Source: Chlamydiae bacterium CG10_big_fil_rev_8_21_14_0_10_35_9 (GTDB taxonomy: Bacteria > Chlamydiota > Chlamydiia > Chlamydiales > SM23-39). From it: DNA of 63,667 nucleotides. Both the position numbers and the translations under genes were made by a program. The DNA lies in contig PFAC01000054.1 in assembly GCA_002773835.1 (NCBI GenBank), positions 1-63,667 of the forward strand, read 5' to 3'. The notes under the pieces were generated by a model that did no database searches, had not been told where the DNA came from, and worked only from the letters and a program-made list of their open reading frames with translations. Positions 9,020 to 63,145 of the stretch are shown here, in pieces (within the stretch, counting starts at the first letter, position 1; every line of letters starts with the position of its first letter).

Positions 9020-9085
9020 ATATAAAACTTTTTTTTATTTTTTAATTAAAGGCTAAAAAAAAGTTTTGGTCAATGTTGTAAAACC

Positions 9086-10237: not shown

Positions 10238-10296
10238 AAGAAAAAATAACAGATTACAAAAGGAGCTGTTTAAACTGAATTTTTTTTAGAAAAATT

Positions 10297-13470: not shown

Positions 13471-14525
13471 GCTAAATCCACCATTTTAAAGAACTTTTCA
13501 AACAGAAAAGCAGTATCTTGTGGCCCTGGATTGCTTTCCGGGTGAAACTGCACAGCAAAAAACGGATCCTGTTTATGTATAATGCCTTCTACAGATCCAT
13601 CGTTGATATTGCGAAAATACACTGACCAGTCATCAGGCAGTGTAGATTCATCTATTGCCCAGCCGTGATTTTGAGATGTTAAATAAGCTTTTTTATCTAT
13701 TAGATTTAAACACGGTTGATTTTGCCCTCGATGGCCAAAGGTAAGTTTGTAGGTTTGGGCTTGAATAGCAAGCGCCATTAATTGAGATCCCAGACAGATC
13801 CCAAAAGTAGGTTTTTTTAGTTGAAGCACTTTTCTAAGAATAGAAATTGTTTCCTTGCAATAGCTAGGATCTCCCGGACCATTAGAAACAAAAACACCAT
13901 CAAAATGTTCATGGGTAAAGTCGTAGTTATAAGGAACCCGCACTATTTCCCCGTTATATCTATTCAAATGGCGCATGATATTTTCTTTCATGCCACAGTC
14001 GATAGCTATAATTTTTTTCCCCTTGTTGCCAAAAGAAGTGATTTTCTGACAGCTTACTTTCTGCACAAGGTGAGTTTGGTTAGGGTCAAAAAAAGAAGAA
14101 CAAAGAGGTTCATTATGGCAGATAGCAGCAAGTGTAACCCCCTGGCTACGCAGTCGCTTGGTAATAGCCCTAGTATCAACATGAGAAATTAAAGGAACGT
14201 TTTGAGACTTTAACCAGTCTAATAGTGACATCGAGCTTTCAAAATGGGAAGGGTAAAGACAAGGCTCACTAATAACTACACCAGCAGCATGGATTTTAGA
14301 AGACTCCCAATAGTTAGATTGGGGTACCCCATAATTTCCGATTAAAGGATAGGTAAAAACAATAATTTGATCGCAAAAGGAAGGGTCTGTCAAAGTTTCA
14401 ACATAGCCTGACATGCCTGTTGTAAAGACTATTTCCCCAAAGAATTCTTTGTTTTGCCAGGAAGGGCTTAAACCATCAAAAGTTTCACCTGTATTTAGGA
14501 TTAGCTTTGATGGGATCATTTGCAT
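13467..14525 (-). CDS. carA: Carbamoyl-phosphate synthase small (glutaminase) subunit
   Basis: 'GICLGSQL' nucleophile elbow and 'FAVQFHPES'. 4-nt overlap with carB. Confidence 0.95.
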   Translation of the reverse strand: MQMIPSKLILNTGETFDGLSPSWQNKEFFGEIVFTTGMSGYVETLTDPSFCDQIIVFTYPLIGNYGVPQSNYWESSKIHAAGVVISEPCLYPSHFESSMSLLDWLKSQNVPLISHVDTRAITKRLRSQGVTLAAICHNEPLCSSFFDPNQTHLVQKVSCQKITSFGNKGKKIIAIDCGMKENIMRHLNRYNGEIVRVPYNYDFTHEHFDGVFVSNGPGDPSYCKETISILRKVLQLKKPTFGICLGSQLMALAIQAQTYKLTFGHRGQNQPCLNLIDKKAYLTSQNHGWAIDESTLPDDWSVYFRNINDGSVEGIIHKQDPFFAVQFHPESNPGPQDTAFLFEKFFKMVDLA

Positions 14526-16426: not shown

Positions 16427-17189
16427 ACTGTTTGTTTTCCTTTTTATTTTTTTTCAAGTCCATGCAGAAATCATTGAGATTAACCATATAGAAGATTTGC
16501 ATGACTATATAGATAAAACAACTTTAGTTATTTTTGACATTGATAATACATTGATTGAGCCTGCGCAAACTCTAGGCTCAGACCAATGGTTCTATTATCG
16601 GAGAAAACAGTATCAAAAGGAAGGATATACTTCTTCCGATGCATTAGAAAAAGCCCTTTCTGAATGGATGGCAGTGCAATGTATTACTGATATGAAACTG
16701 GTAGAACAAGAGGCAAAGCCTTTGATTGATTCTCTTCAAGAAAAGAAAATTTGCATTATGGGTTTGACAACAAGGGGAATGGGTTTAGCGACAAGGACCA
16801 TTCATCAGTTAAAAGATTTTCAAATTCACTTAGACAAGACAGCTCCTTCAAAAGAGGAAGTCTTTTTTGAAAACACTAATGCATGTCTTTTCAGAAATGG
16901 GATTTTATTTACTGCCGGCACAGATAAAGGACTTGCTCTGCAAAAGCTTTTGGAAAAAATAGGATGCCAACCAAAGAAAATTGTTTTTGTGAACGATAAA
17001 AAAAGCCATCTTCTTCCTGTTGAAATTTTTTGTGAGAAGCAAAAAATTCCTTTTATTGGCTTAAGATATGGATATTTAGATGAAAAAGTGTACCAATTTA
17101 ATGGAGAAGTTGCAGAGGTTCAATTTGAGGCTTTTAAGAAAATTTTATCGGATGAAAAAGCATTAGAGTCTTTAGATAACAGATTTTGA
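16419..17189 (+). CDS. Secreted HAD-superfamily phosphatase-like protein
   Basis: Signal peptide 'MNKLFVFLFIFFQVHA', HAD motif I 'VIFDIDNTLIEP' and a late 'VFVNDKK' (motif IV-like). 8-nt overlap with the upstream gene. Confidence 0.5.
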   Translation: MNKLFVFLFIFFQVHAEIIEINHIEDLHDYIDKTTLVIFDIDNTLIEPAQTLGSDQWFYYRRKQYQKEGYTSSDALEKALSEWMAVQCITDMKLVEQEAKPLIDSLQEKKICIMGLTTRGMGLATRTIHQLKDFQIHLDKTAPSKEEVFFENTNACLFRNGILFTAGTDKGLALQKLLEKIGCQPKKIVFVNDKKSHLLPVEIFCEKQKIPFIGLRYGYLDEKVYQFNGEVAEVQFEAFKKILSDEKALESLDNRF

Positions 17190-19730
17190 TCCGGCTTCTA
17201 AAAACCTTTTTTTAAATTTTTCTAATGTTTCTCGATCAATAGGGCAAGGTTTTATATCCCAGATTTTTTCAGCATAGTTGTAAATACTTTCGTCGGAAGA
17301 AAACCTGCCCATTCCTGCAATATTATGAAGTGCAAATTCAGCCCATTTATTTTCCTGTAAATAGAGCTCTTCAACTTTTAAGTTAGTATCATAATAACTA
17401 ATTAAGTCCTTAAGTACAAAATACTGATCAGCAGGTTGGTTGTAGTGACCTTCTAAAAGTGATTGGTGTAAATTCTGAAATGCTTCTTTTTCTGCATCAT
17501 TAATGGCAAAAGTGTTATCGATTAAAGTATCTACAGCCCTTTTGATTTTCTCATTTTGAATATAGTAATCTAAAGCCTTATAAGCATTGGCTTGTAGAAT
17601 TTTTTCGATCTCTTCTTTAGTGGCGCCAAATCTAAAAGGCCACCAATTGTCTCCAATAGCTTGCCTCATTTCAATATTAGCTCCATCTTCCGTTGCTAAG
17701 GTGAGGGCTCCATTTATGGAGAGCTTCATGTTACCCGTTCCAGAAGCTTCTTTGCCAGCTCTTGATATTTGCTGTGATAAATTTGCTCCGGGGATGATTA
17801 CTTCAGCCGAAGAGACATTATAGTTTTCAATGAAGATTACTTTTAACTTGTCTTGAATATCTGGGTCAGTATTTATTTTTCTTGCAATAGCATTAATATA
17901 CTGAATGATTTGTTTAGCTACCAAATATCCTGGGGCAGATTTACCGCCAATGATGACAGTCCTTTTAATTTTTCGTGATTCTGGATTATTTTTAAGGTCA
18001 AAATATAGCATAACAGTATGAAGAGCGTTCATAAGCTGTCTTTTATATTCATGGAATCTTTTAATTTGGACATCAATAAGTGAATCAACATCACATTTGC
18101 ATACGGTGTCAATTATTTTGCCTTTGTAGTCGCGAATAGGATTTTCTTTTGATAAGTAATTTAATAGAATCTCTTTTCTTTTTCTTTTTACCTCTAAGAA
18201 TTTTTTTTGAAGTTCCGGATCAGTCGCATGCTGTTTTAAGTTTTCGATTTTTCTAAAATCGGTAATCCATTCATCTCCAATTTTTTCTATAATTAGAGCT
18301 GAAAGTTCCGGATTCGCGTGTAATAGCCATCTTCTATGAGTGACTCCGTTAGTAACGTTTACAAATTTTTCAGGGTATAAATCATTAAAATCCTTAAAAA
18401 GGGTTTCTTTAAGAATCTGAGTATGCAGTTCAGCAACGCCATTGACTTTATGGCTTCCAAAAATAGCTAGGTTGGCCATGCGCACCTGGCCATCTCCAAA
18501 CAGTGACATTCTACATACTTTTTCTTCATCATTGGGAAACTTGGCACGTACTTGATCACAGAATCTCTGATTTAACTGCTGGATAATTTTATATTGCCTA
18601 GGAAGCAAATACTCCATGCGATGCTCATTCCATTCTTCTAAAGCCTCTTTTAAAATTGTATGGTTAGTATAACTGCAACAGGTCTTGGTGATCTCCAGAG
18701 CTTTATCAAAGCCAACGTTGTGCTTTAAGGTAAGTAGTCTAATGAGTTCTGCCACTACAAGAGCTGGGTGAGTATCATTGATTTGTATGCGTACTTTATC
18801 AGCTACAAGCTCTGCATCATCATAGAAATGAAAGTGCCTAGTTAAAATATCTTGCAGTGATGCAGAAACAAGTAAAAACTCCTGTTTGAGTCTAATCCTC
18901 TTTCCAGTTTCATGGTGATCATTGGGATATAAGACATCGGTAAGAGAGGTATTTTCTCCAGCCTGGTCCAATTTCCCTGCATTATATCTTTGCAGCTCGA
19001 AGTTTCTTGGTGATTCTTTTGTCGACCAAAGTCGAAGAGTTAACACAGAAAATATATCATTTTTAGGACATCCAATGATGGGGTCATCAAAGGACAAAGC
19101 TCTCACCTCTTCAAAGTTTTCTAAGTGAAAAACCTCATCTCCATGACTGTTTTTAACAGAGATTGGTGTTCCACCAAAATGGACGAGCGCAGCATGGCTG
19201 TCTCGTCGAAACTCCCACGGATTTTCATTGAGAAGCCATGTATCAGGTCTTTCCACTTGTATTCCATCCCAAATTTCCTGAGCGAAAATACCATATTGAT
19301 ATCTAAGTCCATATCCCATTGCAGGAAATTGCTGTGCTGCCAAAGACTCCATAAAACAGGATGCCAACCTGCCTAGGCCTCCGTTACCAAGCCCTGGGTC
19401 TGGTTCGCATGAAACTAAGTCGATATAGTTACGGTTGGTTTTTTGCAAAACATCCGAAACCAGTTCATTCACTCCAATATTTGTAATATTTGCGGGGAGC
19501 TCCTTTCCCGGTAAATATTCTAAAGAAAGATAGTATAGAACTCTTTCTTTTTGCTTTTCGATAGTATCGTAAGTAGAGACCCAATTAACAATGATCTCTT
19601 CTCTCAAAGCATAAGAAAAAGCTAAATAATATTCTTCATTAGTAGCATGCTCAATTCCTTTAGAGAAATTGATAATTAAAAAATGCTGAATTTTTCTAAT
19701 TAATGTATCTACTTTTTCTGGCGATACCAT
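17172..19730 (-). CDS. glgP: Glycogen/maltodextrin phosphorylase
   Basis: 'LGNGGLGRLA', 'HEYKRQ' and 'EASGTGNMKLSINGALT' (PLP Lys). The likely start is ATG 19730 (MVSPEK...); the track ORF extends to 19862. Confidence 0.95.
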   Translation of the reverse strand: MVSPEKVDTLIRKIQHFLIINFSKGIEHATNEEYYLAFSYALREEIIVNWVSTYDTIEKQKERVLYYLSLEYLPGKELPANITNIGVNELVSDVLQKTNRNYIDLVSCEPDPGLGNGGLGRLASCFMESLAAQQFPAMGYGLRYQYGIFAQEIWDGIQVERPDTWLLNENPWEFRRDSHAALVHFGGTPISVKNSHGDEVFHLENFEEVRALSFDDPIIGCPKNDIFSVLTLRLWSTKESPRNFELQRYNAGKLDQAGENTSLTDVLYPNDHHETGKRIRLKQEFLLVSASLQDILTRHFHFYDDAELVADKVRIQINDTHPALVVAELIRLLTLKHNVGFDKALEITKTCCSYTNHTILKEALEEWNEHRMEYLLPRQYKIIQQLNQRFCDQVRAKFPNDEEKVCRMSLFGDGQVRMANLAIFGSHKVNGVAELHTQILKETLFKDFNDLYPEKFVNVTNGVTHRRWLLHANPELSALIIEKIGDEWITDFRKIENLKQHATDPELQKKFLEVKRKRKEILLNYLSKENPIRDYKGKIIDTVCKCDVDSLIDVQIKRFHEYKRQLMNALHTVMLYFDLKNNPESRKIKRTVIIGGKSAPGYLVAKQIIQYINAIARKINTDPDIQDKLKVIFIENYNVSSAEVIIPGANLSQQISRAGKEASGTGNMKLSINGALTLATEDGANIEMRQAIGDNWWPFRFGATKEEIEKILQANAYKALDYYIQNEKIKRAVDTLIDNTFAINDAEKEAFQNLHQSLLEGHYNQPADQYFVLKDLISYYDTNLKVEELYLQENKWAEFALHNIAGMGRFSSDESIYNYAEKIWDIKPCPIDRETLEKFKKRFLEAGSKSVI

Positions 19731-19945
19731 ATTTGTTGTTCGAAAGTTAGATATTTTTTTGTATAAGAAATGCTTTGTTAAAAAAAAAGAAACTTTTTTT
19801 AAGTACAAGGTCGCAAAATTTTTTAGTAAATTAAAATTTGACAGTTTTATCAACTTGATCAAGTTTAAACTAATTAGTTTAATATTTGATTTTTATCAAA
19901 TTGTAATTTAAAATCTCCTCCATATTCTTTTAAAAAAGGTTTAAA

Positions 19946-22262: not shown

Positions 22263-23491
22263 TGGAGTCAAATAAAATAACATATCCTTGGCCTATCATT
22301 ACTGAGGAAATCGAAGAAGCTGTCGTTCAGCAATTACACACTACGCTTGGAACTTATGATCGATCTGGCATCACAAAAGAATTCGAAGACAAGTTCAAAG
22401 AAATTCATAAAAGCAAGTTTGCTCTTGTTACCTCAAGTGGAACGGCTGCTCTGCATTCGGCATTTTATGCGCTAGACCTTGGGCCGGGTGATGAGGTCAT
22501 TTGTACTGACTACACTTTTTTTGCTACAGCTATGCCTCTTTTCCAATTAGGAGTAGTACCTGTTTTAGCAGACTGCGATCCTAATGGAGGGCTGGCAGCT
22601 ACAGAAATTGATAGACTTATAACCAAAAAGACAAAAGCAGTCGTTCTTACCCATATGTGGGGAAATCCTTGTGAAATGGATGCGATTTTAGATAGATGTC
22701 AAAAATACAACCTTCGATTAGTGGAAGATTGTTCCCATGCGCATGGGGCAACTTATAAAGGACAGCATGTTGGCACTTTTGGCGATATAGGTATTTGGAG
22801 CCTTCAGTCACAAAAAATTATTGCTGCAGGTGAGGCAGGAATATTGGTTACAAATGATCGTACATGTTACGACAAAGCACAGCTGCTAGGGCATTTCAAT
22901 AAGCGAGCCTTAAAAGAAATGGATCCTTCCTCTCCATTATATCAATATGCTATAACAGGTACAGGACTGAAATACCGCCCAGCGGCTCTTGGCCTTGCCA
23001 TTGCCAATAAGCAACTTGATTACTTAGAGCAGTGGATCAATGCCAAAAACCGAAATGCTGAACGAGTACAAAGTATTATTGGAGAAGTTGATGGGATCAA
23101 GTTTTTAAAAGGAGCTGGAGATTTTTCTCGCTCTGCCTACTATGCATTTACCTTTACCATAGACCCTAAAATAGCTCCTTTTTCTAGAGAAGAATTAGTG
23201 AGTTGTATGCACTCTTTTGGATTTAAGGATATAGATATTCCAAACTCTACTTCCTGCTTGCACAGATATCCAATTTTTCAAAAACCTATTTCTCCTGTGT
23301 ACTCCTATCAAAATGACATTTGCATACGGGGAGATTATCCAAATTCAAAGTTTATTTCAGATCATCTTGTAAAAATTTCTGTTCCTATTGATGATCATAA
23401 GGGTTCTAAAGGTCGTTTTTTTGTCGACTCTTTTGAAACAATTTGGAAAAAAGCAAAGGAGAAGTTATGCACCCTTATTCAAAAAAATTAG
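22262..23491 (+). CDS. DegT/DnrJ/EryC1/StrS-family PLP-dependent sugar aminotransferase
   Basis: 'LVTSSGTAALH', 'LVEDCSHAHGA' and 'SLQSQKIIAAGEAGILVTND' (Lys). TAATG overlap with the upstream gene. Confidence 0.85.
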   Translation: MESNKITYPWPIITEEIEEAVVQQLHTTLGTYDRSGITKEFEDKFKEIHKSKFALVTSSGTAALHSAFYALDLGPGDEVICTDYTFFATAMPLFQLGVVPVLADCDPNGGLAATEIDRLITKKTKAVVLTHMWGNPCEMDAILDRCQKYNLRLVEDCSHAHGATYKGQHVGTFGDIGIWSLQSQKIIAAGEAGILVTNDRTCYDKAQLLGHFNKRALKEMDPSSPLYQYAITGTGLKYRPAALGLAIANKQLDYLEQWINAKNRNAERVQSIIGEVDGIKFLKGAGDFSRSAYYAFTFTIDPKIAPFSREELVSCMHSFGFKDIDIPNSTSCLHRYPIFQKPISPVYSYQNDICIRGDYPNSKFISDHLVKISVPIDDHKGSKGRFFVDSFETIWKKAKEKLCTLIQKN

Positions 23492-23946
23492 AAATGGAGC
23501 TAGTGAGCCAAGCACTAAGAGATGACATACAGAAAATTGTAGTGGGAGGCGTCATTTTAGATAAAAACAAGGAAGCAGTCCTTCTTTTGAAAAGGCACCC
23601 TTCAGATTTTATGCCAAACATTGAAGAGCTTCCCAGTGGAGGGGTCCACGAAGGAGAAAGTCTTGCTGAAGCCCTCGTTAGAGAAGTGCAAGAAGAAACA
23701 ACTCTTGAAGTAGAACTTGTGCAAAGCTATATTAGCAGTTTTGACTACCACTCGCAAAGTGGTCGACTAACAAGGCAGTTTAACTTTCTAGTTCTTCCCA
23801 AATTATATGAACCGATTGTTCTTATTCCTGAAGAGCATTCCAGTTATGTGTGGAAGGAGCTAAATAATACTGCAGGTCTTTCACAAAAAATGAGGGAAAT
23901 TTTTGAGATTACAGCAAAAGCAAAAAATACAGGCTCTCTTCTTTGA
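23467..23946 (+). CDS. Nudix hydrolase
   Basis: Nudix box 'GGVHEGESLAEALVREVQEETTL'. ATG 23467 is preceded by AAGGAG plus 5 nt; the track start is 23443. Confidence 0.8.
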   Translation: MHPYSKKLEMELVSQALRDDIQKIVVGGVILDKNKEAVLLLKRHPSDFMPNIEELPSGGVHEGESLAEALVREVQEETTLEVELVQSYISSFDYHSQSGRLTRQFNFLVLPKLYEPIVLIPEEHSSYVWKELNNTAGLSQKMREIFEITAKAKNTGSLL

Positions 23947-24562
23947 CTTTGATGGTGTCCTTTTTGATCTCGAACCTCTTCATTTTAAAGCTTGGGAATT
24001 AACGTTGGAAAAGCTTGGATATCGTGACCCAAGCTTTTCACTAGAAAATGTAGTTGGAATTTCTGATAAAGAAATTGCTGATTACTTTATCAATTTTTTT
24101 TCACTTTCAATGAAAAGCGAAAATTTGCAGGAAGAAAAAGAACTTAACTATGATTACTTAATTAGCAGTGTTCAGTTTCCTACGAAGGAATTGCATGACA
24201 TTCTTAAAAAATATAGGCAATCATTTAAGTTGTTAATAGTCTCTTCTTCTACTACTAGAGCAATTAAAAAAATATTAGATCGATGCAATCTTGCTGATTA
24301 TTTCTTCACCATTATTGGTGCTGATAAAGTGCAAAATCACAAACCGCATCCAGAGCCTTATCATATGGCTCTTGAAGCTTGCTCTATTTCAGCAGATCAA
24401 GCAGTTGCAATTGAAGATTCAGTAGCTGGGCTTCGTTCTGCTCAAGATGTTGGGATCAGAGCTATTTGGTTTAAAAGGTACCAACATACACCTTCTTCTG
24501 AATACCAAAATAGTTTTCCTTCCATATCCCATCTTTCAGAACTGGAGTTTTATATTCAGTAG
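23903..24562 (+). CDS. HAD-superfamily phosphatase (beta-phosphoglucomutase-like subfamily)
   Basis: 'FFDFDGVLFD' motif I, 'IVSSS' motif II and 'AIEDSVAGLRSA' motif IV. TTG start overlapping the Nudix gene. Confidence 0.8.
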   Translation: MRLQQKQKIQALFFDFDGVLFDLEPLHFKAWELTLEKLGYRDPSFSLENVVGISDKEIADYFINFFSLSMKSENLQEEKELNYDYLISSVQFPTKELHDILKKYRQSFKLLIVSSSTTRAIKKILDRCNLADYFFTIIGADKVQNHKPHPEPYHMALEACSISADQAVAIEDSVAGLRSAQDVGIRAIWFKRYQHTPSSEYQNSFPSISHLSELEFYIQ

Positions 24563-54865: not shown

Positions 54866-57097
54866 CTATTGTTTCGAAGAGTCCATTTTAGAAGCTATTT
54901 CCTGGGATAGTTCACCTTTGTAATATACATCATCCATTATTGCAAGAATTTGTTTGGCTTCATCAAGGTGATCTTTATTAACCATTCTGTTTCCGATAAG
55001 AGCTAAATTAAAGTTTTTAACAGTGCTCCTTAGCCTAAAACCGTCTCCCTCTTCAGGAAGATCGCCTGCCAAGCTAATAGCTTGATCAAGATATTTTGAT
55101 GAACCAAAACGAATGTATCCTTCAGCAAGAGCAATAACTAAAAATTTCAGTGCTTCAGTTTTTAGAATTCCTTCACTTCTTTGGCTTTCTTCTATTGCAA
55201 TGCCTATAAAATCTTCAAATACTTCTTCCTCTATCCTGCCAATATTTCTAACTAGCATTGCAGATAGATTCACAGATTTTGAATAATCTACACACCCAGT
55301 AAGAACCTCTAAAGCTGTTCGAGGCTCATTACGGCTTTCATAAGCACGTGCTACAGCCAAAAGTGAGTCATTTTTGATTCTATTTCCGTCTTTGAAAACA
55401 GGTAGTTCCTCTGCCAGTTGTAAAGCTTCTTCAATATGGTCTTTTTCTATAAGTTGATAGCAAATTTGTTCATTTACAAGACTTGTTGAAAGAGGTGTAC
55501 AAGCAACTTTTTTGGCTAGGTTTATAGCTTTACCTGAGACTAGTCGATTAGTAAGTCTGTCGATAAAAAACTCATGTAGTTCTTTAGGGGCATTAACAAG
55601 GCCTTTTGCAATTTTTAAAAGATTTCCAATGCCCTGTTCTGTTTGTATATTGTCACATAAATATTCATGTAAACAGCCCCGGACCCCACTAGATGGTTTA
55701 AATTCTAATGGTATGTTAAAAATTTGTAGAGCTTCATCAATTCTTCCACTCTCCAAATGAGTAATAAAAATCAGATCATAGGCAAGGCGTTTTAACATTT
55801 GATTCATGACTTTTTCAGAAAGACTGTAGATCACTTGAAGGTCTTTAGTTTCCTCAAGTTGTTTTTTTAGGTAATCCCAAAAACTACTTCGTAATGTGTA
55901 ATCATTAGAATTTAATAAGTCTGTGTTGATAATTCCTAATGCTTTTTCTATGTCATCTCTATTTAGCAACTCTTGCACAATATGGTATAAACTAGAGTTT
56001 CTTTTGTCTTCGGTAGAAATAGTGTGAGCTAAATTTATAGCTTCGTCTACTTCCCCTTTTTCAACCAATATTTCAATGAGATCTCGAACAATTCTAGTAG
56101 TTCTATCAGGGATGTTTCCAGCAGCGTTTAAAGCTTTTTGGATAGTGAGGTTTAAGTTTACACCTTCTTCAATATCTTTTTTGAATGTTACAAGAACAAT
56201 TTTACTCAGAAGACAGCTTCTAGAGCTTTGATCAGAAATTTTTTCAACCTGCTGCAAAGCCTCATCAGTGCGCCTTTTGTTGAGTAACTCTTCAATAATG
56301 TTTGTTTGCATATATTTTCTAAGATTTTCAGAAGGGATCTGATCACAAAAGTCTGCGTAGTCAAGAGTAATTTTTGAGTCTTCTAAGGTACAAATGATTC
56401 GTGAAAATTCATGGTTTCTTTGATTTTCATGTTTAATTTGGTGGGCAGCTTGAAAAGCTAGTTTAAAATTTTGGGTTTTTACTGCGTCTCCTACAATTTG
56501 CGCAAAAATATTATCCAAAGCATATGGAATCTCCTCAGGTATCTTTTCAACTACTTCATAAGCCTTATCTTGAACGGTCACTGTAATAAGAAGGCCATCT
56601 GATCCTAAAAAAGTAGTGTGGATGGTAGAATTTTCTATATTGTTTAATAAATCTTCTTTATTAGCTTCTACAGCAGCCTCCATTTCACATTTATTATTAA
56701 GCAGCACACCTTCAACATATTTTAGCATAGATTTTTTCCACTCTTCGACTTTTATATTATGAGCCGCATGAAAAGCTAGATCAACATTTCGGGTTTTTAG
56801 TGCGTCTCCTGCAATTTGCGCAAAAATATTATTCAAAAGGGACTGAATATTACTGTCTTTTTGTGCTTCCCTTGTATATGTCTTGTCTTGATAGCCAGAG
56901 ACTGTGACGCTAACGCTCTGATCTGTAATATTAATTGTAAATAGATTGCCTATACCTCTTGTTGCACTTGCCATATTAACCTCATTTTTTTTTGAAAAGT
57001 GGAAGAAGTTTATAGAAGCTGTAATATGATTAACAATAAAAACCATTAAAAAATTTATGCATGGCTTTTCCCCCCCCCCCCCATTTATTGGCGCCAT
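54866..57097 (-). CDS. Large alpha-helical repeat protein with a duplicated N-terminal module
   Basis: 743-aa ORF. The more likely start is ATG 56974 (MASATRG…) after GAGG plus 5 nt. The C-terminal two-thirds hold recurring units of about 35-45 aa with '[IVL][DE][EKQ]A[LI]' turns. No known domain recognised. Confidence 0.6.
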   Translation of the reverse strand: MAPINGGGGEKPCINFLMVFIVNHITASINFFHFSKKNEVNMASATRGIGNLFTINITDQSVSVTVSGYQDKTYTREAQKDSNIQSLLNNIFAQIAGDALKTRNVDLAFHAAHNIKVEEWKKSMLKYVEGVLLNNKCEMEAAVEANKEDLLNNIENSTIHTTFLGSDGLLITVTVQDKAYEVVEKIPEEIPYALDNIFAQIVGDAVKTQNFKLAFQAAHQIKHENQRNHEFSRIICTLEDSKITLDYADFCDQIPSENLRKYMQTNIIEELLNKRRTDEALQQVEKISDQSSRSCLLSKIVLVTFKKDIEEGVNLNLTIQKALNAAGNIPDRTTRIVRDLIEILVEKGEVDEAINLAHTISTEDKRNSSLYHIVQELLNRDDIEKALGIINTDLLNSNDYTLRSSFWDYLKKQLEETKDLQVIYSLSEKVMNQMLKRLAYDLIFITHLESGRIDEALQIFNIPLEFKPSSGVRGCLHEYLCDNIQTEQGIGNLLKIAKGLVNAPKELHEFFIDRLTNRLVSGKAINLAKKVACTPLSTSLVNEQICYQLIEKDHIEEALQLAEELPVFKDGNRIKNDSLLAVARAYESRNEPRTALEVLTGCVDYSKSVNLSAMLVRNIGRIEEEVFEDFIGIAIEESQRSEGILKTEALKFLVIALAEGYIRFGSSKYLDQAISLAGDLPEEGDGFRLRSTVKNFNLALIGNRMVNKDHLDEAKQILAIMDDVYYKGELSQEIASKMDSSKQ
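56440..56843. repeat. Intragenic tandem duplication with a 318-bp period
   Basis: 56473-56520 and 56791-56838 are nearly identical. They encode 'NIFAQIVGDAVKTQN.KLAFQAAHQIK' and 'NIFAQIAGDALKTRN.DLAFHAAHNIK'. Confidence 0.8.
57070..57082. repeat. Homopolymeric C13 tract (G13 on the coding strand)
   Basis: Thirteen consecutive C in a markedly AT-rich window. It lies either in codons 5-9 of the long ORF (…NGGGGE…) or about 100 nt upstream of ATG 56974. Confidence 0.95.
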
Positions 57098-57350: not shown

Positions 57351-57845
57351 TTAAGAAAGACAAGGCATAAAGCCTAATGTAAAGTTTTCTGTATCTAGAA
57401 GTGAATTGGGCCATGCATTGATAGTATAGGGGAGTTGAATGCGGGCTAAGGTTAGGTGAGGACGATAATAGTCACCATAATCATTTATTATGGGAAGCTT
57501 CTTTTTTTGAATGAAATCAACGGCTTGTTGATAAAGGTTTAATAGCGGAGTATCTCTTGCAATGGAAAGCTCTGCCCAATAATAACCTTCATGCTCAGCG
57601 ATTCCTTTAACAAAACTGAAGGCAGCGAAACGGATCATAAGAGAAGGTTGTGATAGTTTTTTAAACTCTTCCCAAAGGCTTGCCGCTAGACTTTGCTCGC
57701 ACTCAAATTGACATAGAGTGATATGAGGAGTGCTTTCTTTAGATAAAAGATGGTCACTATTTTGAGAAGAAAAGAATTCTTGCGCTGCTTGAATATATTT
57801 TTCCGCACTTTCTGGAGTAGGGATGAGAGCTAGCATGTAAGGCAT
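57351..57845 (-). CDS. 2H-phosphoesterase superfamily protein (LigT/cyclic phosphodiesterase-like)
   Basis: Two H-x-T-x motifs in the typical context, 'TPHITLCQF' and 'RPHLTLARI'. 164 aa. Starts 16 nt downstream of the GGDEF gene. Confidence 0.7.
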   Translation of the reverse strand: MPYMLALIPTPESAEKYIQAAQEFFSSQNSDHLLSKESTPHITLCQFECEQSLAASLWEEFKKLSQPSLMIRFAAFSFVKGIAEHEGYYWAELSIARDTPLLNLYQQAVDFIQKKKLPIINDYGDYYRPHLTLARIQLPYTINAWPNSLLDTENFTLGFMPCLS

Positions 57846-57861
57846 TTAATTTTTTGACCTT

Positions 57862-58755
57862 TTACATTTCCTGGTTCCAGAATTGCGTGCAGTTTCGCCC
57901 GGAAGATTTGGCTGCCATAAGGGCTTTGTCTGCTCTTTCTATTGAATCCTCAACAGGAGCATAAAGGTCTAGAGGGGAGATCCCAAATGATACAGTGATG
58001 CGAATAGGAGTAGGTTCTTTAATAATATCATTAGCAGCTATTTTGTTGCGTAGCTCTTCAATCTTTTCAAAAGCTTTGTTTGCTTCAATATTATTTAAAG
58101 AAATAAGAAACTCTTCTCCCCCATAGCGAAAAATTCTATCATGAGGTTGAAGATTTTCTGCTATTAGATGGGCAACAACAGATAAGATATTATCTCCTAT
58201 TTTATGACCATGTTGGTCGTTAATTGCTTTAAAATGGTCAATGTCCATCATAACTAAAAAACAGCGTTGATTTTCCCTTTTAGCACTTTCTTGTTGTTCT
58301 CGTAAAAGGGTGAGCATGTTGACTCGGTTAATGGTTTTAGTCAACGGATCACGGGTATAGAGTAAATTTTCCAGCTCTCGTATCAAAGTGGTTATTTCTA
58401 AACTAAGCCTTTCTAAGGAATTGGAAAAATTGTCATATTCGGGAGGGGATACTACTCTTCCTGAATTTACTGCCTCCAGTAAAGATTTAGCCAACTGGTG
58501 CATTCTTTCATGTTCTTCTCCTAGTGCTTTAAAACCGGGGTGTTTACTTAAATGGTTTAGATTTTCTGAATAATACCATTGACCGAAACGGCACTGTCTA
58601 TGAGCATCATCAGCAATATCGCGTTGATCGGGGGGGAGGTGGCATATAAGAGTTCGAATAAGTGAGTTAAACCAAGCCTGATGGTTATAAATTGCTTGAT
58701 CTAATCTTGTGATAATTTTTTGTAAGTCTTCGTGATTCATTTCAGTAAAAGGCAT
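57862..58755 (-). CDS. Diguanylate cyclase with an N-terminal chemoreceptor zinc-binding (CZB) domain, DgcZ-like
   Basis: CZB ligands 'AIYNHQAWF', 'QCRFGQWY' and 'EEHERMH'. GGDEF domain 'MDIDHFKAINDQHGHKIGD' and 'RYGGEEF'. The I-site position reads QPHD, not RxxD. Confidence 0.85.
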   Translation of the reverse strand: MPFTEMNHEDLQKIITRLDQAIYNHQAWFNSLIRTLICHLPPDQRDIADDAHRQCRFGQWYYSENLNHLSKHPGFKALGEEHERMHQLAKSLLEAVNSGRVVSPPEYDNFSNSLERLSLEITTLIRELENLLYTRDPLTKTINRVNMLTLLREQQESAKRENQRCFLVMMDIDHFKAINDQHGHKIGDNILSVVAHLIAENLQPHDRIFRYGGEEFLISLNNIEANKAFEKIEELRNKIAANDIIKEPTPIRITVSFGISPLDLYAPVEDSIERADKALMAAKSSGRNCTQFWNQEM

Positions 58756-58761
58756 AAATGG

Positions 58762-60162
58762 TTACTTTTTTTCTTGGGATACTCTTTCCCCCCTTTTATA
58801 CACATAGCGATTTTTCGTAAAGAAGCGAAAAAATCCTACAATACGCCACCAAACAGTAATTGGTCGGTAAGTAAAATTGTCTAAAAGAGAAAAGAAAAAC
58901 ATTTTAGCAATCATTCTAATGGATTGGTATTTTCTTAAGAAAATCTCTTGCATAATCATGGAGGTAATCGTTAGAAACAGACTAGTTCCCCACGCAATCA
59001 GGATAAAGTACCAAAAAAAGGCAAGGTTTAACACTCCAAAAAAATAACAGAAGGTGACGTAAAGATAGCCAAATCCTTCAATTAAAGGAGCTAGTGCCTC
59101 TCCAAAAAAAAGAAAAGGAAAATGGATAAACCCTACTTTTCCATATTTAGGGTTAAACATCATCTTTCTTCTTCTCCAGCAAACTTCAACAATAGAGCAG
59201 TGCCATCGTTTGCGCTGTTTGGCTAGGGAGGAAAATGTTTGTGGTACATCGGTCCAAACAATTGAGTCAAAGACATAATCGATACGGTATGGCTTTTTTT
59301 TGTCGCGCATGTCTTTATGAAGGGCAATAGTCATATCAAGATCGCCTGCTAGTACTTTTTGAAATCCTCCGATGTCAACAACTGCTTGTTTGTTAAAAAG
59401 GCCAAACCCTCCAGAGATAATAGGTGATCCACCTAGCTGGTTCCATCCAAGCCTTGCAAAGAAAAAAGTTTTTAAATATTCAATAACTTGCATCGATCCC
59501 CAAAAAGAAGAAGGTAAACTAACTTTTGTCACCTTTCCATTTTCTAGCGTGCACCCGTTTAAAATAGTAAGCATCCCACCCATAGCGCATATATTTTTTT
59601 CTGTAAAAAGATGTTGAGAAAATCGGTGTACCGCATCAGGATCAATGATTGAATCTGCATCAATATTTATAAAAAAAGGGGTCATGCATGCGTTAATGCC
59701 TGCGTTGATAGAGTCTTCTCTTCCTCCATTTTTTTTGTGGATCACCGTTAGATTAGGATGTGATTGAGAACGGTAATAATGTTTTATGGGCTCAGTTTTT
59801 AAAATGGGGCGAAAAATAGGAGGGAAAGAATCTAATGTATATTTATTCATTAATAGTTGCATTGTCTGGTCGGTAGAATCATCATCTACAACGATTACCT
59901 TGATGTGAGGAAAATCAACATTTAAAGCGGCAGCAACAGAGGACAGTAAAACTTCTGATTCATTAAAAGTAGGAATAATGATTGTAATAGGAGGAACAAC
60001 ATCAAGCTTTAAGAGCTGATAAGAATCTTGCGCTTTAACTTCTTGTGATCTTCGAACAAGGTTTGGATTGGTGAAAATAAGAAGAAGTATATAAAAGCCA
60101 TTCAGCAATAAAAAATACCCAAGTATGAATAGATCTATTCCTAAAAGGATATTTTCATTCAT
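58762..60162 (-). CDS. Processive family 2 glycosyltransferase (PgaC/IcaA/NodC-like synthase)
   Basis: N- and C-terminal TM helices, 'ITIIIPTFNES', 'VVDDDSTD', 'NIDADSI' and 'QRKRWHCS' (Q-x-x-R-W). Confidence 0.8.
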   Translation of the reverse strand: MNENILLGIDLFILGYFLLLNGFYILLLIFTNPNLVRRSQEVKAQDSYQLLKLDVVPPITIIIPTFNESEVLLSSVAAALNVDFPHIKVIVVDDDSTDQTMQLLMNKYTLDSFPPIFRPILKTEPIKHYYRSQSHPNLTVIHKKNGGREDSINAGINACMTPFFINIDADSIIDPDAVHRFSQHLFTEKNICAMGGMLTILNGCTLENGKVTKVSLPSSFWGSMQVIEYLKTFFFARLGWNQLGGSPIISGGFGLFNKQAVVDIGGFQKVLAGDLDMTIALHKDMRDKKKPYRIDYVFDSIVWTDVPQTFSSLAKQRKRWHCSIVEVCWRRRKMMFNPKYGKVGFIHFPFLFFGEALAPLIEGFGYLYVTFCYFFGVLNLAFFWYFILIAWGTSLFLTITSMIMQEIFLRKYQSIRMIAKMFFFSLLDNFTYRPITVWWRIVGFFRFFTKNRYVYKRGERVSQEKK

Positions 60163-61246
60163 AAAGATCTACCTTTAAAGCAAATTGAGCCGCTTCGTAA
60201 GCATAACGGTCCTCTTTAGGGTTTACCTGATTTAATGTTTTAATTCCTTTATCTCCTATTCGTTTTAATGCCAAAGCGCTATTCATTCTTACCCACCACG
60301 TTTTATCCTTTAGCAAGTTCAACAGTTCAGAAACAGCCTCTTCAGCTTTTAGGTAGCCTAAGCTGCGAGCTGCTATAGCTTTTACTTCCCATTCAGGAGC
60401 TTTTAAAAGAGGAAGAAGAAGAGAAATACTTCTGGGCTCAAAAAAATGACCTAGAGCGCGAATAGCTGCGATGCGTAAATTCAAGTGAGCCGCATAAAGA
60501 TCTTTTTCTGCTAAATCAACAATGTGAGAATTCATCTTATGAGCTAATACTTCTAGACAGCTGACTCTTTTATAAGGATCAGTCTCTTTTTCAAACCTTT
60601 TTTCTATATGATCAAAGGATTTTGGGTTTCCCCCTAGTAAAGCTTCTTGAAATGGATGTCGTAAAAATCTATTACAGCTCATAGCATCAATAACAGCATT
60701 AGCACTTTTGTAAGTTCCCAGCTTTGCTGCACAAGCTGCAGCTGAGTACTTAATAATGGGGACTGGATCTTGTAATAAGTAAAGAACTTCAGGTTCATTA
60801 TTGGTATCAGGAAAATGAAGATAGCATCCGGCTGCCTGTACTCTTTTAGTCCATTTTTTAGAATAGGTCAGTTTTTTAGCTTGAGGAAAAAGAAGATTTT
60901 GAGAAATCGATTTTTTTAATGTTTCCCAATGGCTGTCTTTTACTTCTTCATTAACTTTTAAGATTAGGGGAACAAGAAAAGGAATATTACATTTACAGCC
61001 GGCAAATAAAGGTATAGAAAATTCTTTCTTTTGTTGAATTGCTTTGATTAAATAACTTTTGAAAGCTGCAAGTTTTTTTTCTTTTCTTTTCCCCGAAAAC
61101 GTAAGAATAGGTTTTAACAAGAAAGAAAACGCAATATGAAGTCCAATAAAAATGAATTGTGAAATTAAAATCCATTTGACTAAATATAGATAGGATAAAA
61201 ATTGATGTCGTAACATAAATGGATTACTTAGGCATACATTATTCAT
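60155..61246 (-). CDS. Membrane-anchored HEAT (PBS-lyase-type) repeat protein
   Basis: N-terminal TM 'WILISQFIFIGLHIAFSFLL'. Repeats include 'LRIAAIRALGHF', 'EWEVKAIAARSLGYL' and 'TWWVRMNSALALKRIGD'. 8-nt overlap with the synthase gene. Confidence 0.7.
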   Translation of the reverse strand: MNNVCLSNPFMLRHQFLSYLYLVKWILISQFIFIGLHIAFSFLLKPILTFSGKRKEKKLAAFKSYLIKAIQQKKEFSIPLFAGCKCNIPFLVPLILKVNEEVKDSHWETLKKSISQNLLFPQAKKLTYSKKWTKRVQAAGCYLHFPDTNNEPEVLYLLQDPVPIIKYSAAACAAKLGTYKSANAVIDAMSCNRFLRHPFQEALLGGNPKSFDHIEKRFEKETDPYKRVSCLEVLAHKMNSHIVDLAEKDLYAAHLNLRIAAIRALGHFFEPRSISLLLPLLKAPEWEVKAIAARSLGYLKAEEAVSELLNLLKDKTWWVRMNSALALKRIGDKGIKTLNQVNPKEDRYAYEAAQFALKVDLYE

Positions 61247-61258
61247 TTAAATAATTTA

Positions 61259-63145
61259 ATGACTTATAATTGGCAAGTTATGACAAAGATTAAGGCCTCG
61301 CTTTTCTTCCTATTGGTTATTGGGGGACTTTCAGCTCTTTCAGAACCTATTTTAGCTCCTCCTTCGGAAGTGCAAGAAGAAGTTTCTTTTCCTAATCCTC
61401 AGACAGCATATGAATGGTATGAATGGGGATTGATTCAAATTCGGGAGAAAAAATGGGAGGAAGCTAAACAAAGCCTTGAAGAGGCTCTTTTTTTAGATCC
61501 TGAACTTATTGTTGCCAAAGTGCAATTGGCCTTCCTTGAGTTATGGCAAAATAACTTATCTGCCTCCTATCAATCATTTTTGGAGGTGTTTGAAGTTTCT
61601 CCTTGTGAGCCTCACGCATTAGAGGGGGTTCGAGAAATTGGCTTACAATGGGCGCAAGAACAAACTAAACAGCAAGAAGAAGTTGTAATATATGAAAAAT
61701 TGAATAGCTGCGAGCCTCATAATCCCGACACTCTTTTTTACCTTGGGCGGTCTCTTGCCAGAACGGGAAACTGGAATCAAGCAAAAGGGGTCTTGCAAGA
61801 ATGTCTTAGATTAGCCCCTCAATATAGCGATGCAGAAATTCAGCTTGCTTACATTTATTTATGGGAAGGGAAACCAGAAGAAGCAGAAGCTCTTTTTATC
61901 AAATATCCTAATAATCCAGATGCGAAACTGGCTCTTGCGCGCATTGCAAGGCAGCGTAATGAACATGATAAAGCAAAAAAACACTTAGAAGAGATTCTTT
62001 CCGAGAATCCTGAACATCCTGAGGCAAGAAAAGAATATGCAAATGTTCTTTATTTAAGTGGAAATTACTTTGAAGCGGAGAATGAGTTCTCATGGCTTAT
62101 TGATAATGGAGAAGATCCCAATGTTTTATGGCTTCCTCTTTTTGATATTGGCTCCCATACCCGTTATGCACTGTGGACAGAAACGCTTTATACAGACGCT
62201 AAAGAAAATGACCCAGATCTTAGCGCTCCCGTGGTGAAGGATTATTATTTTTACAACGCGGTTCACGTATTAGTCCCTCTTACAAATATGTGGCGATTAG
62301 ACATCAAGCAGATTTATTATCACCAAAGAGAAAATGATATTTATCCACCTGTAGGCGTTAATTACTCTGCGTATTATTCTGGAGGTCAGATCACTTCTAA
62401 TTGCTATTTTTGCAAAAATTGGCAGTGGGATCTTTTTATAAGGATCTTTCATGCTTGGGGAAGCCAAAATCAAATCGCAAACTTTCCTTTTGAATCAAAA
62501 AATCGTTATGAGCCTGGAACAGGACTTCGCTATAGCACAGACAGACAATTGTTTTTTATTGGAGCCCATAGTGAATCTTTTATCATAAAAGATTTTTCCA
62601 GCAATATTTCCAAACTGCTTGGGACAATTAATTTAGTTGCCGCTTATACCTACCGTTTCAATTGGATATTAAAGCCAGAGGTTCAAGCATCCGTAGAACA
62701 GGTATTTATTAAAGACAACTTAAGAAATTGGAAAAACACTAGTAACGGCTCAATTCGATTTGGGCTGCCTTACATAGCAGACTATGTCAAAGCGATCTAT
62801 TTTTTTGAGTATGGGCACTTTGATAAGCTTTCTCAAAATTACTATTCTTTTAGAGAGCAGGTTAGAAATGCTATTGGTGGATATGTTCATGTTCCTATTA
62901 CCTCTTATATTTCTTGGAACACTACCTATTACCATAGGTGGCAGTTGACCCGTGACTTATTCCAACCGATCGGTAACCAAGTGTTTGTAGCTCAAAGACA
63001 ACTGTTGGTTGCTAACTGGGTTACTTCAGAAATTTTAGTCCGCTATAAAGATAAAATGCGCCTAGCTTTGGAAGGACATTATTTCCGAGATAACCTTCCT
63101 TATCGCGACTGGGGCATTACAGGTTCTTTCCTTTGGCAGTTTTGA
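61259..63145 (+). CDS. Outer-membrane TPR plus beta-barrel protein (PgaA/BcsC/NfrA-like exporter)
   Basis: Signal peptide 'ASLFFLLVIGGLSALS'. N-terminal TPR repeats of about 250 aa. C-half with alternating aromatic beta-strand pattern ending '...GITGSFLWQF' (terminal Phe). Confidence 0.65.
   Translation: MTYNWQVMTKIKASLFFLLVIGGLSALSEPILAPPSEVQEEVSFPNPQTAYEWYEWGLIQIREKKWEEAKQSLEEALFLDPELIVAKVQLAFLELWQNNLSASYQSFLEVFEVSPCEPHALEGVREIGLQWAQEQTKQQEEVVIYEKLNSCEPHNPDTLFYLGRSLARTGNWNQAKGVLQECLRLAPQYSDAEIQLAYIYLWEGKPEEAEALFIKYPNNPDAKLALARIARQRNEHDKAKKHLEEILSENPEHPEARKEYANVLYLSGNYFEAENEFSWLIDNGEDPNVLWLPLFDIGSHTRYALWTETLYTDAKENDPDLSAPVVKDYYFYNAVHVLVPLTNMWRLDIKQIYYHQRENDIYPPVGVNYSAYYSGGQITSNCYFCKNWQWDLFIRIFHAWGSQNQIANFPFESKNRYEPGTGLRYSTDRQLFFIGAHSESFIIKDFSSNISKLLGTINLVAAYTYRFNWILKPEVQASVEQVFIKDNLRNWKNTSNGSIRFGLPYIADYVKAIYFFEYGHFDKLSQNYYSFREQVRNAIGGYVHVPITSYISWNTTYYHRWQLTRDLFQPIGNQVFVAQRQLLVANWVTSEILVRYKDKMRLALEGHYFRDNLPYRDWGITGSFLWQF

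Follow-up and report, generated by a model that had tools for sequence, protein, structure and literature searches.

To our knowledge, c-di-GMP has so far been found to be degraded only by EAL and HD-GYP proteins, whereas the substrate of Orn and PggH is pGpG, and we know of no general occurrence of EAL or HD-GYP enzymes in the Chlamydiota. Members of this phylum are regarded as obligately intracellular and devoid of c-di-GMP. According to a census from 2005, histidine kinases and Ser/Thr kinases are the only signal transducers that chlamydiae have not lost (PMC1183210). GGDEF proteins are not mentioned in the chlamydial genomics literature that was found, and the full text of one pangenome paper refers to neither c-di-GMP nor biofilm. 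Among the 2H phosphoesterases, Acb1 cuts 3'-5' cyclic dinucleotides via a cyclic-phosphate intermediate; it cuts only 3' of adenosine and leaves c-di-GMP uncleaved (PMC9117128). In E. coli, expression of CNPase, a 2H enzyme, brings down the level of 2',3'-cNMPs and alters biofilm and PNAG-related expression (PMC8765455). Literature in which 2H enzymes and GGDEF proteins appear together yielded incidental co-mentions only.

The window, i.e. the complete 63,667-nt stretch of chlamydial DNA analysed here, carries a four-gene operon in which a 2H gene follows a diguanylate cyclase gene. The operon is opened by the gene of a HEAT membrane protein (60155..61246, minus strand, 363 aa), hydrophobic at its N-terminus and with HEAT repeats at its C-terminus; this gene overlaps by 8 nt with the gene of a processive membrane GT2 synthase (58762..60162, minus strand, 466 aa, D,D,D...QRKRW motif). 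The cyclase gene (57862..58755, minus strand, 297 aa) follows the GT2 gene after 6 nt, and a spacer of 16 nt (57846..57861, minus strand; AAGGTCAAAAAATTAA on the coding strand) separates the cyclase stop codon from the start codon of the terminal 2H gene (57351..57845, minus strand, 164 aa). These coordinates confirm the 164-aa ORF with two HxT motifs that the initial annotation had placed 16 nt past the GGDEF stop. Divergent from the operon lies the gene of a TPR protein whose C-terminal region is long (61259..63145, plus strand, 628 aa), a putative outer-membrane export component that is PgaA/BcsC-like in its TPR part only. The GT2 synthase is only distantly PgaC/IcaA-like, and GT2 genes of this family usually have a HEAT gene as partner, which lies upstream in 47 of 80 related loci. 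The ORF list contains no PgaB-like or PgaD-like ORF in the operon. A scan for consensus promoters and terminators returned fewer sites than shuffled sequence and none between the operon genes, including the 16-nt spacer. The sequence runs that hold the window are groundwater metagenomes, with no RNA runs among them. As the initial annotation had claimed, the 2H gene is almost certainly transcribed with the cyclase.

By its domains and metal ligands, the upstream gene is assigned to the DgcZ/YdeH-type zinc-sensing cyclases. Pfam identifies an N-terminal zinc-sensing CZB domain (E 3e-13) and a GGDEF domain (E 4e-39) with the active site GGEEF, and the DgcZ equivalog NF007380 scores 260.8 bits, above its cutoff of 256. 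The GGEEF motif and the H, C and HxxxH zinc-ligand positions are kept in seven orthologues and align with PDB 4h54. A weak match to the Cas10 palm (22.9 bits, cutoff 27) is the usual cross-match of GGDEF domains and does not indicate a defence protein. PADLOC matched no defence-system model to the 2H, cyclase and GT2 proteins, and we rejected a defence role of the CBASS, Panoptes or mCpol type. A six-frame motif scan of the window detected one GGDEF and no EAL (DDFGTG) or HD-GYP signature, as the initial annotation had stated, although 63 kb say little about the genome. Neither EAL nor HD-GYP proteins occur among the 29 of the window's 61 large ORFs that were run through Pfam. The description of the cyclase as lacking an I-site applies to the window allele, which has QPHD at the RxxD position, but not to the clade, since orthologous cyclases of two other loci contain RPYD (L057) and RHND (L054). 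The argument that an I-site-less cyclase would need the 2H protein fails because these orthologues with RxxD retain the 2H gene as well.

The 164-aa protein is assigned to the 2H phosphoesterase superfamily with an intact catalytic tetrad on the basis of its motifs and its predicted structure. Its HxT motifs, PHITL (residues 40-44) and PHLTL (residues 129-133), supply H41/T43 and H130/T132; both are invariant in an alignment of seven homologues and in a wider set of relatives, and they are no chance pattern. The Pfam scores fall close to the cutoffs, in line with a divergent 2H member: 2_5_RNA_ligase2 (PF13563) reaches E 4e-5 and 24.1 bits (cutoff 27), and LigT_PEase (PF02834) E 6.8e-5 and 23.4 bits (cutoff 23.3). 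No EAL or HD-GYP domain was detected by Pfam in the 2H protein, and a PDB sequence search with it returned noise only (E > 1). With the NCBIfam ThpR equivalog TIGR02258, the protein scores 26.5 bits where 65.7 would be required, and it is therefore no standard ThpR. In the AF2 model (pLDDT 86.8), both HxT motifs lie on β-strands, and Foldseek retrieved LigT, Usb1, AKAP18 and CPDase at a probability of 1.00 and a TM of about 0.65. The top matches were E. coli LigT (5ldm, TMq 0.65), Usb1, PH0099, AKAP18 and plant CPDase, and the matches also include Acb1, the penguinpox cGAMP PDE and the phage BCSR5 PDE. The modelled fold is thus closest to E. coli LigT and resembles Acb1 only weakly. The tie to Acb1 suggested in the initial annotation does not hold up, with a TMq of 0.48 for Acb1 versus 0.65 for LigT and with an Acb1 that spares c-di-GMP (PMC9117128).

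A profile search defined the 2H subfamily as 605 cluster representatives, and its members occur in many unrelated contexts. The nearest other chlamydial relatives are preceded by a HAD phosphatase or fused with one; such neighbourhoods were found in four chlamydial lineages, with gaps of -1 to 8 nt or ORF overlap. More distant members are fused to a P-loop kinase (P0038, P0041), which is the end-healing arrangement of RNA repair enzymes. The order rph-2H-rdgB is seen in Micavibrio and tyrS-2H in Melainabacteria. The initial annotation had considered that the orthologues might always be linked to tRNA or RNA repair genes, and this applies in part: outside the clade, the neighbours or fusion partners are HAD, P-loop kinase, rph/rdgB or tyrS genes and not cyclases. 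In L048 (Legionella longbeachae), a weak GGDEF match is located 3 kb from the 2H gene on the opposite strand. The species-level scan revealed one 2H copy in each genome, and the cyclase-linked 2H gene is therefore the orthologue of the HAD-linked gene rather than an extra paralogue. As far as sequence kinship can tell, the relatives of the 2H protein point to ordinary 2',3'-cyclic-phosphate processing.

Within the clade, the cyclase-2H pair is kept in all ten loci whose 2H protein is at least 46% identical to the window protein, with spacers of 5-20 nt. The cyclase-linked 2H gene is a conserved terminal gene of the operon in groundwater chlamydiae. Identity among the cyclase-linked 2H proteins drops to 34%, divergence of the 2H gene runs parallel to that of the cyclase gene across the linked loci, and the downstream genes are unrelated among the five loci with readable downstream sequence. 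The gene encoding the tetrad is under purifying selection (dN/dS 0.20-0.32), and by both dN/dS and identity it is the operon gene with the weakest constraint. In the comparison of the window with L009, GT2 and cyclase show dN/dS values of 0.04-0.07, far below those of 2H; the cyclase value in the L001-L056 comparison is 0.11. Between the window and L001, 2H identity is 47% versus 62-64% for GT2 and cyclase. This low constraint, the single 2H copy in every genome scanned and the many contexts of the subfamily would suit a housekeeping 2H gene that became the last cistron after one ancestral rearrangement and is co-expressed without functional meaning. Such a passive passenger is nevertheless rather unlikely, because the linkage has outlasted divergence to 34% in five unrelated downstream contexts, whereas the neighbours in a shallower sister clade are variable and already shuffled. 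The spacers have also remained short, and the C-terminal change described below is limited to the cyclase-linked clade. Strict retention of the pair down to 34% identity exceeds what would be expected of a passive hitchhiker.

All ten cyclase-linked 2H proteins stop at PC[ILF] followed by 0-7 residues, in contrast to the 39/39 other subfamily members compared, which keep tails of the GxSDxxGQ[YF] type. The segment LGxSDxxGQ[YF], otherwise family-wide, is missing exactly in the cyclase-linked clade, which by this alignment has lost the last β-strand of the family in a clade-specific C-terminal truncation. That the loss is confined to this clade suggests that the substrate pocket was changed upon recruitment. 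An AF2 model of the full-length relative P0007, made to place the missing strand, was unusable (pLDDT 60.6, tail <50). PC[ILF] was also considered as a CaaX-type lipidation site; this reading was dropped because its distance to the C-terminus is variable or wrong. In an NJ tree of 49 subfamily members, the HAD-linked L012 is nested in the cyclase-linked group, but we do not trust this placement: the tree, built on 160 residues, is unsupported, and L012 still has the ancestral C-terminus. Judged from these comparisons, the locus represents a genuine case of an enzyme of the cyclic-phosphodiesterase type that was recruited, specifically in this clade, into a c-di-GMP/exopolysaccharide operon.

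The initial annotation had read the gene order as a synthase/hydrolase pairing. The 2H fold, the intact tetrad and the conserved pair agree with this, but the contexts of the relatives do not, nor do the homologous HEAT-GT2 operons whose cyclase is of the REC-GGDEF or MASE1-GGDEF type; these operons contain no 2H gene and no phosphodiesterase of any kind. As an off-switch, the 2H protein would cleave c-di-GMP, or the linear product derived from it, in the manner of Usb1 and Acb1 and so end the local signal: the 2'-OH would attack the adjacent 3'-phosphate, yielding a 5'-OH and a 2',3'-cyclic phosphate that is opened to a 2'- or 3'-phosphate, with GpGp and Gp as products instead of pGpG or 5'-GMP. 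This role, which we consider unlikely, would fit the linkage in 10/10 loci with short spacers and unrelated flanks, the parallel divergence of both genes, the C-terminus remodelled at recruitment, and the intact tetrad under purifying selection. It would also fit a window without EAL or HD-GYP, the 2005 census of chlamydial transducers (PMC1183210), and the repeated recruitment of 2H enzymes against cyclic oligonucleotide signals, as in Acb1, the penguinpox cGAMP PDE and the phage BCSR5 PDE (PMC9117128). On the other hand, one ancestral event may underlie all linked loci, and association of 2H and cyclase genes, complete within the clade, was seen in none of about 35 non-chlamydial subfamily loci. 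Orthologues paired with HAD phosphatases or kinases, the HEAT-GT2 operons without 2H, a fold nearer to LigT than to an Acb1 that leaves c-di-GMP uncut, and an I-site loss that is not conserved across the clade likewise speak against it. Direct c-di-GMP hydrolysis is plausible at a low probability, the sole evidence for it being gene order. Improbable, too, is the fuller proposal that the truncated 2H protein forms a third, metal-independent class of c-di-GMP phosphodiesterase, derived from a housekeeping cyclic phosphodiesterase and acting by 2'-OH transesterification to give 5'-OH/3'(2')-phosphate products. Such a class would have arisen when a Parachlamydiales-type lineage, otherwise without EAL/HD-GYP, gained a self-contained module of zinc-sensing cyclase plus exopolysaccharide synthase.

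A non-catalytic role was also considered, in which the 2H protein would bind c-di-GMP or GMP and signal to the synthase as an accessory subunit, replacing the missing PilZ/PgaD. The central domain of AKAP18 binds AMP and is a precedent for a binding-only 2H protein; AKAP18 2H domains are among the Foldseek matches, Pfam detects no PilZ or MshEN domain in the GT2 protein, and the operon has no PgaD-like gene. This role is very improbable: the catalytic His and Thr of the two motifs do not vary, and catalysis is therefore favoured over accessory binding. Related HEAT-GT2 operons, moreover, function without a 2H gene.

Tentatively, and with less than even confidence, we favour a LigT/ThpR-type 2',3'-cyclic phosphoesterase that was captured by the operon and has a housekeeping or modulating role, without direct c-di-GMP hydrolysis. 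It would be a cytoplasmic, metal-independent enzyme with one His-x-Thr motif on either side of a cleft, the two together acting as acid and base on the 2',3'-cyclic phosphate of a ribose (2',3'-cNMP or an RNA>p end). Its ancestor was probably the single-copy chlamydial 2H protein that is HAD-paired or HAD-fused in sister lineages. Capture would have occurred in one deep Parachlamydiales-type clade, as the last gene after HEAT, GT2 exopolysaccharide synthase and DgcZ-type cyclase, the clade in which the last β-strand was also lost. As the terminal operon gene, 2H should be made whenever cyclase and synthase are made. The predicted chemistry is cyclic-phosphodiester hydrolysis, with a likely role in nucleotide housekeeping or in modulation coupled to the biofilm/EPS state, e.g. 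by reducing 2',3'-cNMPs; c-di-GMP itself would not be a direct substrate. The strict retention of the pair, the clade-specific tail loss and the sub-cutoff ThpR score count against an ordinary phosphodiesterase.

If the 2H protein were such an ordinary cyclic phosphodiesterase, this would be a modest annotation point. If it degraded c-di-GMP, it would represent an enzyme class new to c-di-GMP turnover, beyond EAL/HD-GYP, with reaction products that are also new and that standard pGpG/GMP assays would miss, and the module would combine sensor, writer, eraser and effector in one complete unit of c-di-GMP signalling in Chlamydiota. Irrespective of 2H function, the operon is a documented case in Chlamydiota of an exopolysaccharide synthase that is coupled to a c-di-GMP cyclase, and it singles out a widespread HEAT-GT2 synthase module that recruits its own cyclase repeatedly.

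The HAD-2H pairs and fusions of other Chlamydiota (L012, L013, L014, L017; fusion P0055) belong to the same subfamily at 33-52% identity and share with the window 2H protein the RPHLTLARI motif and one copy per genome. They differ in keeping the C-terminal GxSDxxGQ[YF] segment and in having a HAD phosphatase with a signal peptide as partner instead of a cyclase. E. coli ThpR/LigT (5ldm, 4qak) is the best structural match (TMq 0.65), of similar size, with two HxT motifs including PH[IL]TL and, like the window protein, without a signal peptide. Identity is about 15%, however, and the window protein lacks the last β-strand motif of the family, so that the ThpR/LigT fold with its C-terminal hairpin (S/G...G..Y motif) is incomplete, and, unlike ThpR/LigT, it is encoded within a c-di-GMP/EPS operon. 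Phage Acb1 (7t26) has the 2H fold and the HxT/HxT tetrad in common with the window protein, but it ranks only 49th in Foldseek (TMq 0.48), has no sequence match, and its BFVD models reach at most 0.55. Acb1 is phage-encoded and has a C-terminal lid, whereas the window 2H gene is chromosomal, in a chlamydial operon, and its product has lost C-terminal residues. In E. coli, DgcZ (YdeH) activates the PNAG synthase of PgaABCD locally through c-di-GMP under zinc control. The operon resembles this system in its cyclase, which aligns end to end with 4h54 and keeps the four zinc ligands, and in the partners of this cyclase, a processive GT2 of PgaC-like type and an outer-membrane protein with TPRs. 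The PgaC and PgaA equivalogs are not reached (TIGR03937, 104.6 bits, cutoff 422.3; TIGR03939, 19 bits, cutoff 366.65). In contrast to the E. coli system, the window cyclase lies inside the synthase operon, and in place of PgaB and PgaD this operon contains a HEAT-repeat membrane protein and a 2H enzyme.

The 2H phosphoesterase gene of the window, a groundwater-metagenome sequence whose nearest genomes in a genome scan are Chlamydiota and Parachlamydiales MAGs, is preceded by three genes on the same strand. The first encodes a 363-aa HEAT-repeat protein with a hydrophobic N-terminus and overlaps by 8 nt with the gene for a 466-aa processive-type glycosyltransferase (GT2), which carries a QRKRW motif and is only remotely similar to PgaC. 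A 6-nt gap separates GT2 from a 297-aa GGDEF cyclase (57862..58755, minus strand), the stop codon of which lies 16 nt before the 2H gene (57351..57845, minus strand, 164 aa). Since the genes share one strand, are tightly spaced and are not separated by any promoter-like or terminator-like site in a promoter/terminator scan, they form an operon ordered HEAT, GT2, DgcZ-like cyclase and 2H; a 628-aa TPR protein is encoded divergently to it. The cyclase contains a CZB followed by a GGDEF domain, scores above the NCBIfam cutoff for the DgcZ/YdeH equivalog (260.8 bits vs 256) and aligns over its full length with the DgcZ structure 4h54; the zinc-ligand positions (His/Cys/HxxxH) and the GGEEF motif are kept. 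A six-frame motif scan of the window detected neither a second GGDEF nor an EAL or HD-GYP signature, and none of the 29 ORFs examined with Pfam (of 61 large ones) is an EAL or HD-GYP protein, which upholds the absence of EAL and HD-GYP noted in the initial annotation.

ORF and fold analyses also bear out the 2H protein as first described, with two HxT motifs (PHITL, residues 40-44; PHLTL, residues 129-133) and this spacing from the GGDEF stop. The two bacterial 2H models of Pfam give weak, borderline scores (PF13563, 24.1 bits, cutoff 27; PF02834, 23.4 bits, cutoff 23.3), the ThpR equivalog model of NCBIfam reaches 26.5 bits vs a cutoff of 65.7, and PDB sequences provided no meaningful match. 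The AlphaFold2 model (8 input sequences) is confident (pLDDT 86.8, pTM 0.84) and places both HxT motifs on beta-strands. Foldseek matched it to 2H proteins at probability 1.00, with E. coli LigT (5ldm) at the top, followed by Usb1, Pyrococcus PH0099, AKAP18 and plant CPDase, and a search of the viral library agrees with this result. LigT is nearer (TMq 0.65) than Acb1 (7t26; TMq 0.48, ranked no higher than 49), the enzyme that had been put forward as precedent. These data confirm a divergent LigT-like 2H protein.

A word-indexed protein search with the 2H query returned only seven relatives. Wherever identity to the query is 46% or more, the 2H gene directly follows an orthologous CZB-GGDEF gene, 5-20 nt after it. 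The cyclase-2H pair is present in the window, L009, L052, L053, L054, L056, L001 (counted together with its near-identical copies), L011, L057 and L058, and 2H identity within this clade extends down to 34% (median 47%). The sub-groups of the 2H and cyclase genes coincide, which fits co-inheritance. Downstream sequence could be read in five loci; the next gene is unrelated in all five and convergent in three of them. Thus, 2H is the terminal cistron and moves with the operon, not with its neighbour on the other side. The dN/dS values of 2H (0.20 for window vs L009, 0.32 for L001 vs L056) indicate purifying selection; the cyclase (0.07-0.11) and GT2 (0.04) are under stronger constraint. That the 2H protein is carried along as a passive passenger is unlikely, and a role as a non-catalytic nucleotide-binding subunit highly improbable.

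In the comparison of the window (57351-63145) with L009, its closest relative, dS shows an approximately four-fold spread among adjacent operon genes (2H 0.27, HEAT 0.29, GT2 0.51, cyclase 1.02), suggesting recombination or a mosaic operon. Downstream of 2H, the window encodes a single 743-aa TPR-like protein (54866-57097, minus strand), while L009 contains two tandem paralogues (7487-12267), which are 39% and 60% identical to that protein. The relatives at 46% identity (L001, 2237-4306; L002-L004; L010) have two extra genes between those for the TPR outer-membrane protein and the HEAT protein, one for a heavy-metal P-type ATPase (HMBD plus E1-E2) and one for a 204-aa protein, next to the CZB cyclase with its zinc sensor; the locus is bordered by a fragment of a DDE transposase.

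A full profile search with the 2H subfamily yielded 605 cluster representatives at E ≤ 1e-3, and a species-level genome scan 43 loci. The co-occurrence with GGDEF genes, a survey of which the initial annotation had suggested, holds for the cyclase-linked clade; outside it, cyclase, GT2 and HEAT genes are absent near 2H in the scanned loci, with Legionella longbeachae as a partial exception (weak GGDEF match 3 kb away, opposite strand). The nearest chlamydial relatives beyond the clade share 33-44% identity with the query. In four lineages (L012, L013, L014, L017), 2H lies immediately 3' of a conserved HAD phosphatase, in most with a signal peptide; the gaps are -1 to 8 nt in three, and L013 has overlapping ORF calls. 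The pair in L012 occupies 7273-8543. One metagenomic representative, P0055, is a HAD-2H fusion, while in P0038 and P0041 the fusion partner of the 2H domain is a P-loop kinase, as in RNA end-healing enzymes. In Micavibrio, 2H is flanked by rph and rdgB, and in Melainabacteria it follows tyrS. LigT/ThpR-type 2H enzymes process 2',3'-cyclic phosphates, and by analogy the family-level function would most simply be 2',3'-cyclic phosphate processing on nucleotides or RNA ends. In L020-L051, the subfamily comes mostly from bacteria with an intracellular or predatory life style (Chlamydiota, Legionella, Caedibacter, Nucleicultricaceae, Micavibrio, Melainabacteria/Obscuribacter, Pseudobdellovibrionaceae), a skew that may partly come from the peptide patterns of the scan.

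As each genome in the scan contains one 2H copy, the cyclase-linked gene is no additional paralogue but the relocated orthologue of the HAD-linked gene. A C-terminal hairpin motif, '[LF]xLGxSDxxGQ[YF]...', occurs in 39/39 other subfamily members compared and in 0/10 cyclase-linked proteins, which end in 'PC[ILF]' plus 0-7 residues. Among the HAD-linked proteins, L012 resembles the clade most, and it retains the ancestral tail; hairpin loss therefore coincides with recruitment to the operon. The 2H protein belongs to a known superfamily, of which it is a new, truncated form.

The proposal that 2H is a direct c-di-GMP off-switch is clear-cut and inexpensive to test, and would be of consequence if correct. 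Gene order lends it real support and 2H chemistry permits it: Usb1 and Acb1 cut 3'-5' bonds via a 2',3'-cyclic phosphate intermediate (PMC9117128), and the penguinpox cGAMP PDE and phage BCSR5 PDE share the 2H fold in Foldseek. However, the evidence, which consists of gene neighbourhood in one clade, ends at co-expression, because Acb1 cleaves only 3' of adenosine and spares c-di-GMP (PMC9117128), the fold is nearer to LigT than to Acb1, and the orthologues' partners are phosphatases and kinases, not cyclases. Some orthologous cyclases with an RxxD I-site (RPYD in L057, RHND in L054) also keep 2H, contrary to the idea that an I-site-less cyclase would particularly need it. Such a switch is unlikely, and the context of the family favours a more ordinary function. 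The best single reading, a tentative one, is that a LigT-type cyclic phosphodiesterase joined the HEAT-GT2-cyclase operon by recruitment and serves there as an accessory gene. The enzyme might act on biofilm/PNAG expression by lowering 2',3'-cNMPs; in E. coli, a 2H enzyme that depletes 2',3'-cNMPs is reported to alter both biofilm and PNAG expression (PMC8765455).

Elsewhere, the window encodes a 445-aa ERG4/ERG24 sterol-reductase family protein (7682-9019, minus strand; Pfam E 1e-129), a eukaryote-type enzyme on a chlamydial contig. Pyrimidine de novo genes (10297-14525 and 2349-4644, both minus strand; carA, carB, dihydroorotate dehydrogenase-like, amidohydrolase) and glycogen phosphorylase (17172-19862) make the metabolism of the contig wider than that of pathogenic Chlamydia. 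At 23443-24562 (plus strand), the genes for a Nudix hydrolase and a HAD_2 phosphatase overlap; with only 27-28% identity to the 2H-linked HAD of other chlamydiae, this HAD_2 was ruled out as its orthologue.

The HEAT membrane protein and processive GT2 (window 58762-63145; L059-L136) represent an exopolysaccharide synthase module that is widespread and apparently uncharacterised. Of the 80 loci obtained in a metagenome scan with the GT2 query, 47 contain the HEAT-GT2 pair, often with an adjacent TPR or YaiO outer-membrane barrel. A GGDEF gene lies near GT2 in 12/80, with the order REC-GGDEF, HEAT, GT2, YaiO in L090, L117 and L125 and a MASE1-PAS-(GAF)-GGDEF cyclase in L081 and L093. The GT2 synthase family has thus been linked repeatedly to a cyclase of its own, an arrangement that suggests control by c-di-GMP. 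Only the two chlamydial loci among the 80 contain 2H; an operon-encoded degrading enzyme is not a usual part of HEAT-GT2 loci, and 2H is a chlamydial addition.

Chlamydiota are a phylum without described c-di-GMP signalling. A 2005 census reported the loss of all chlamydial signal transducers except histidine and Ser/Thr kinases (PMC1183210), a literature search of chlamydial genomics papers found no mention of GGDEF, and neither c-di-GMP nor biofilm appears in the full text of one chlamydial pangenome paper. The operon represents a new form of DgcZ/Pga-type local c-di-GMP control, resembling the DgcZ-to-PgaCD circuit of E. coli but differing from it in being a single, self-contained unit.
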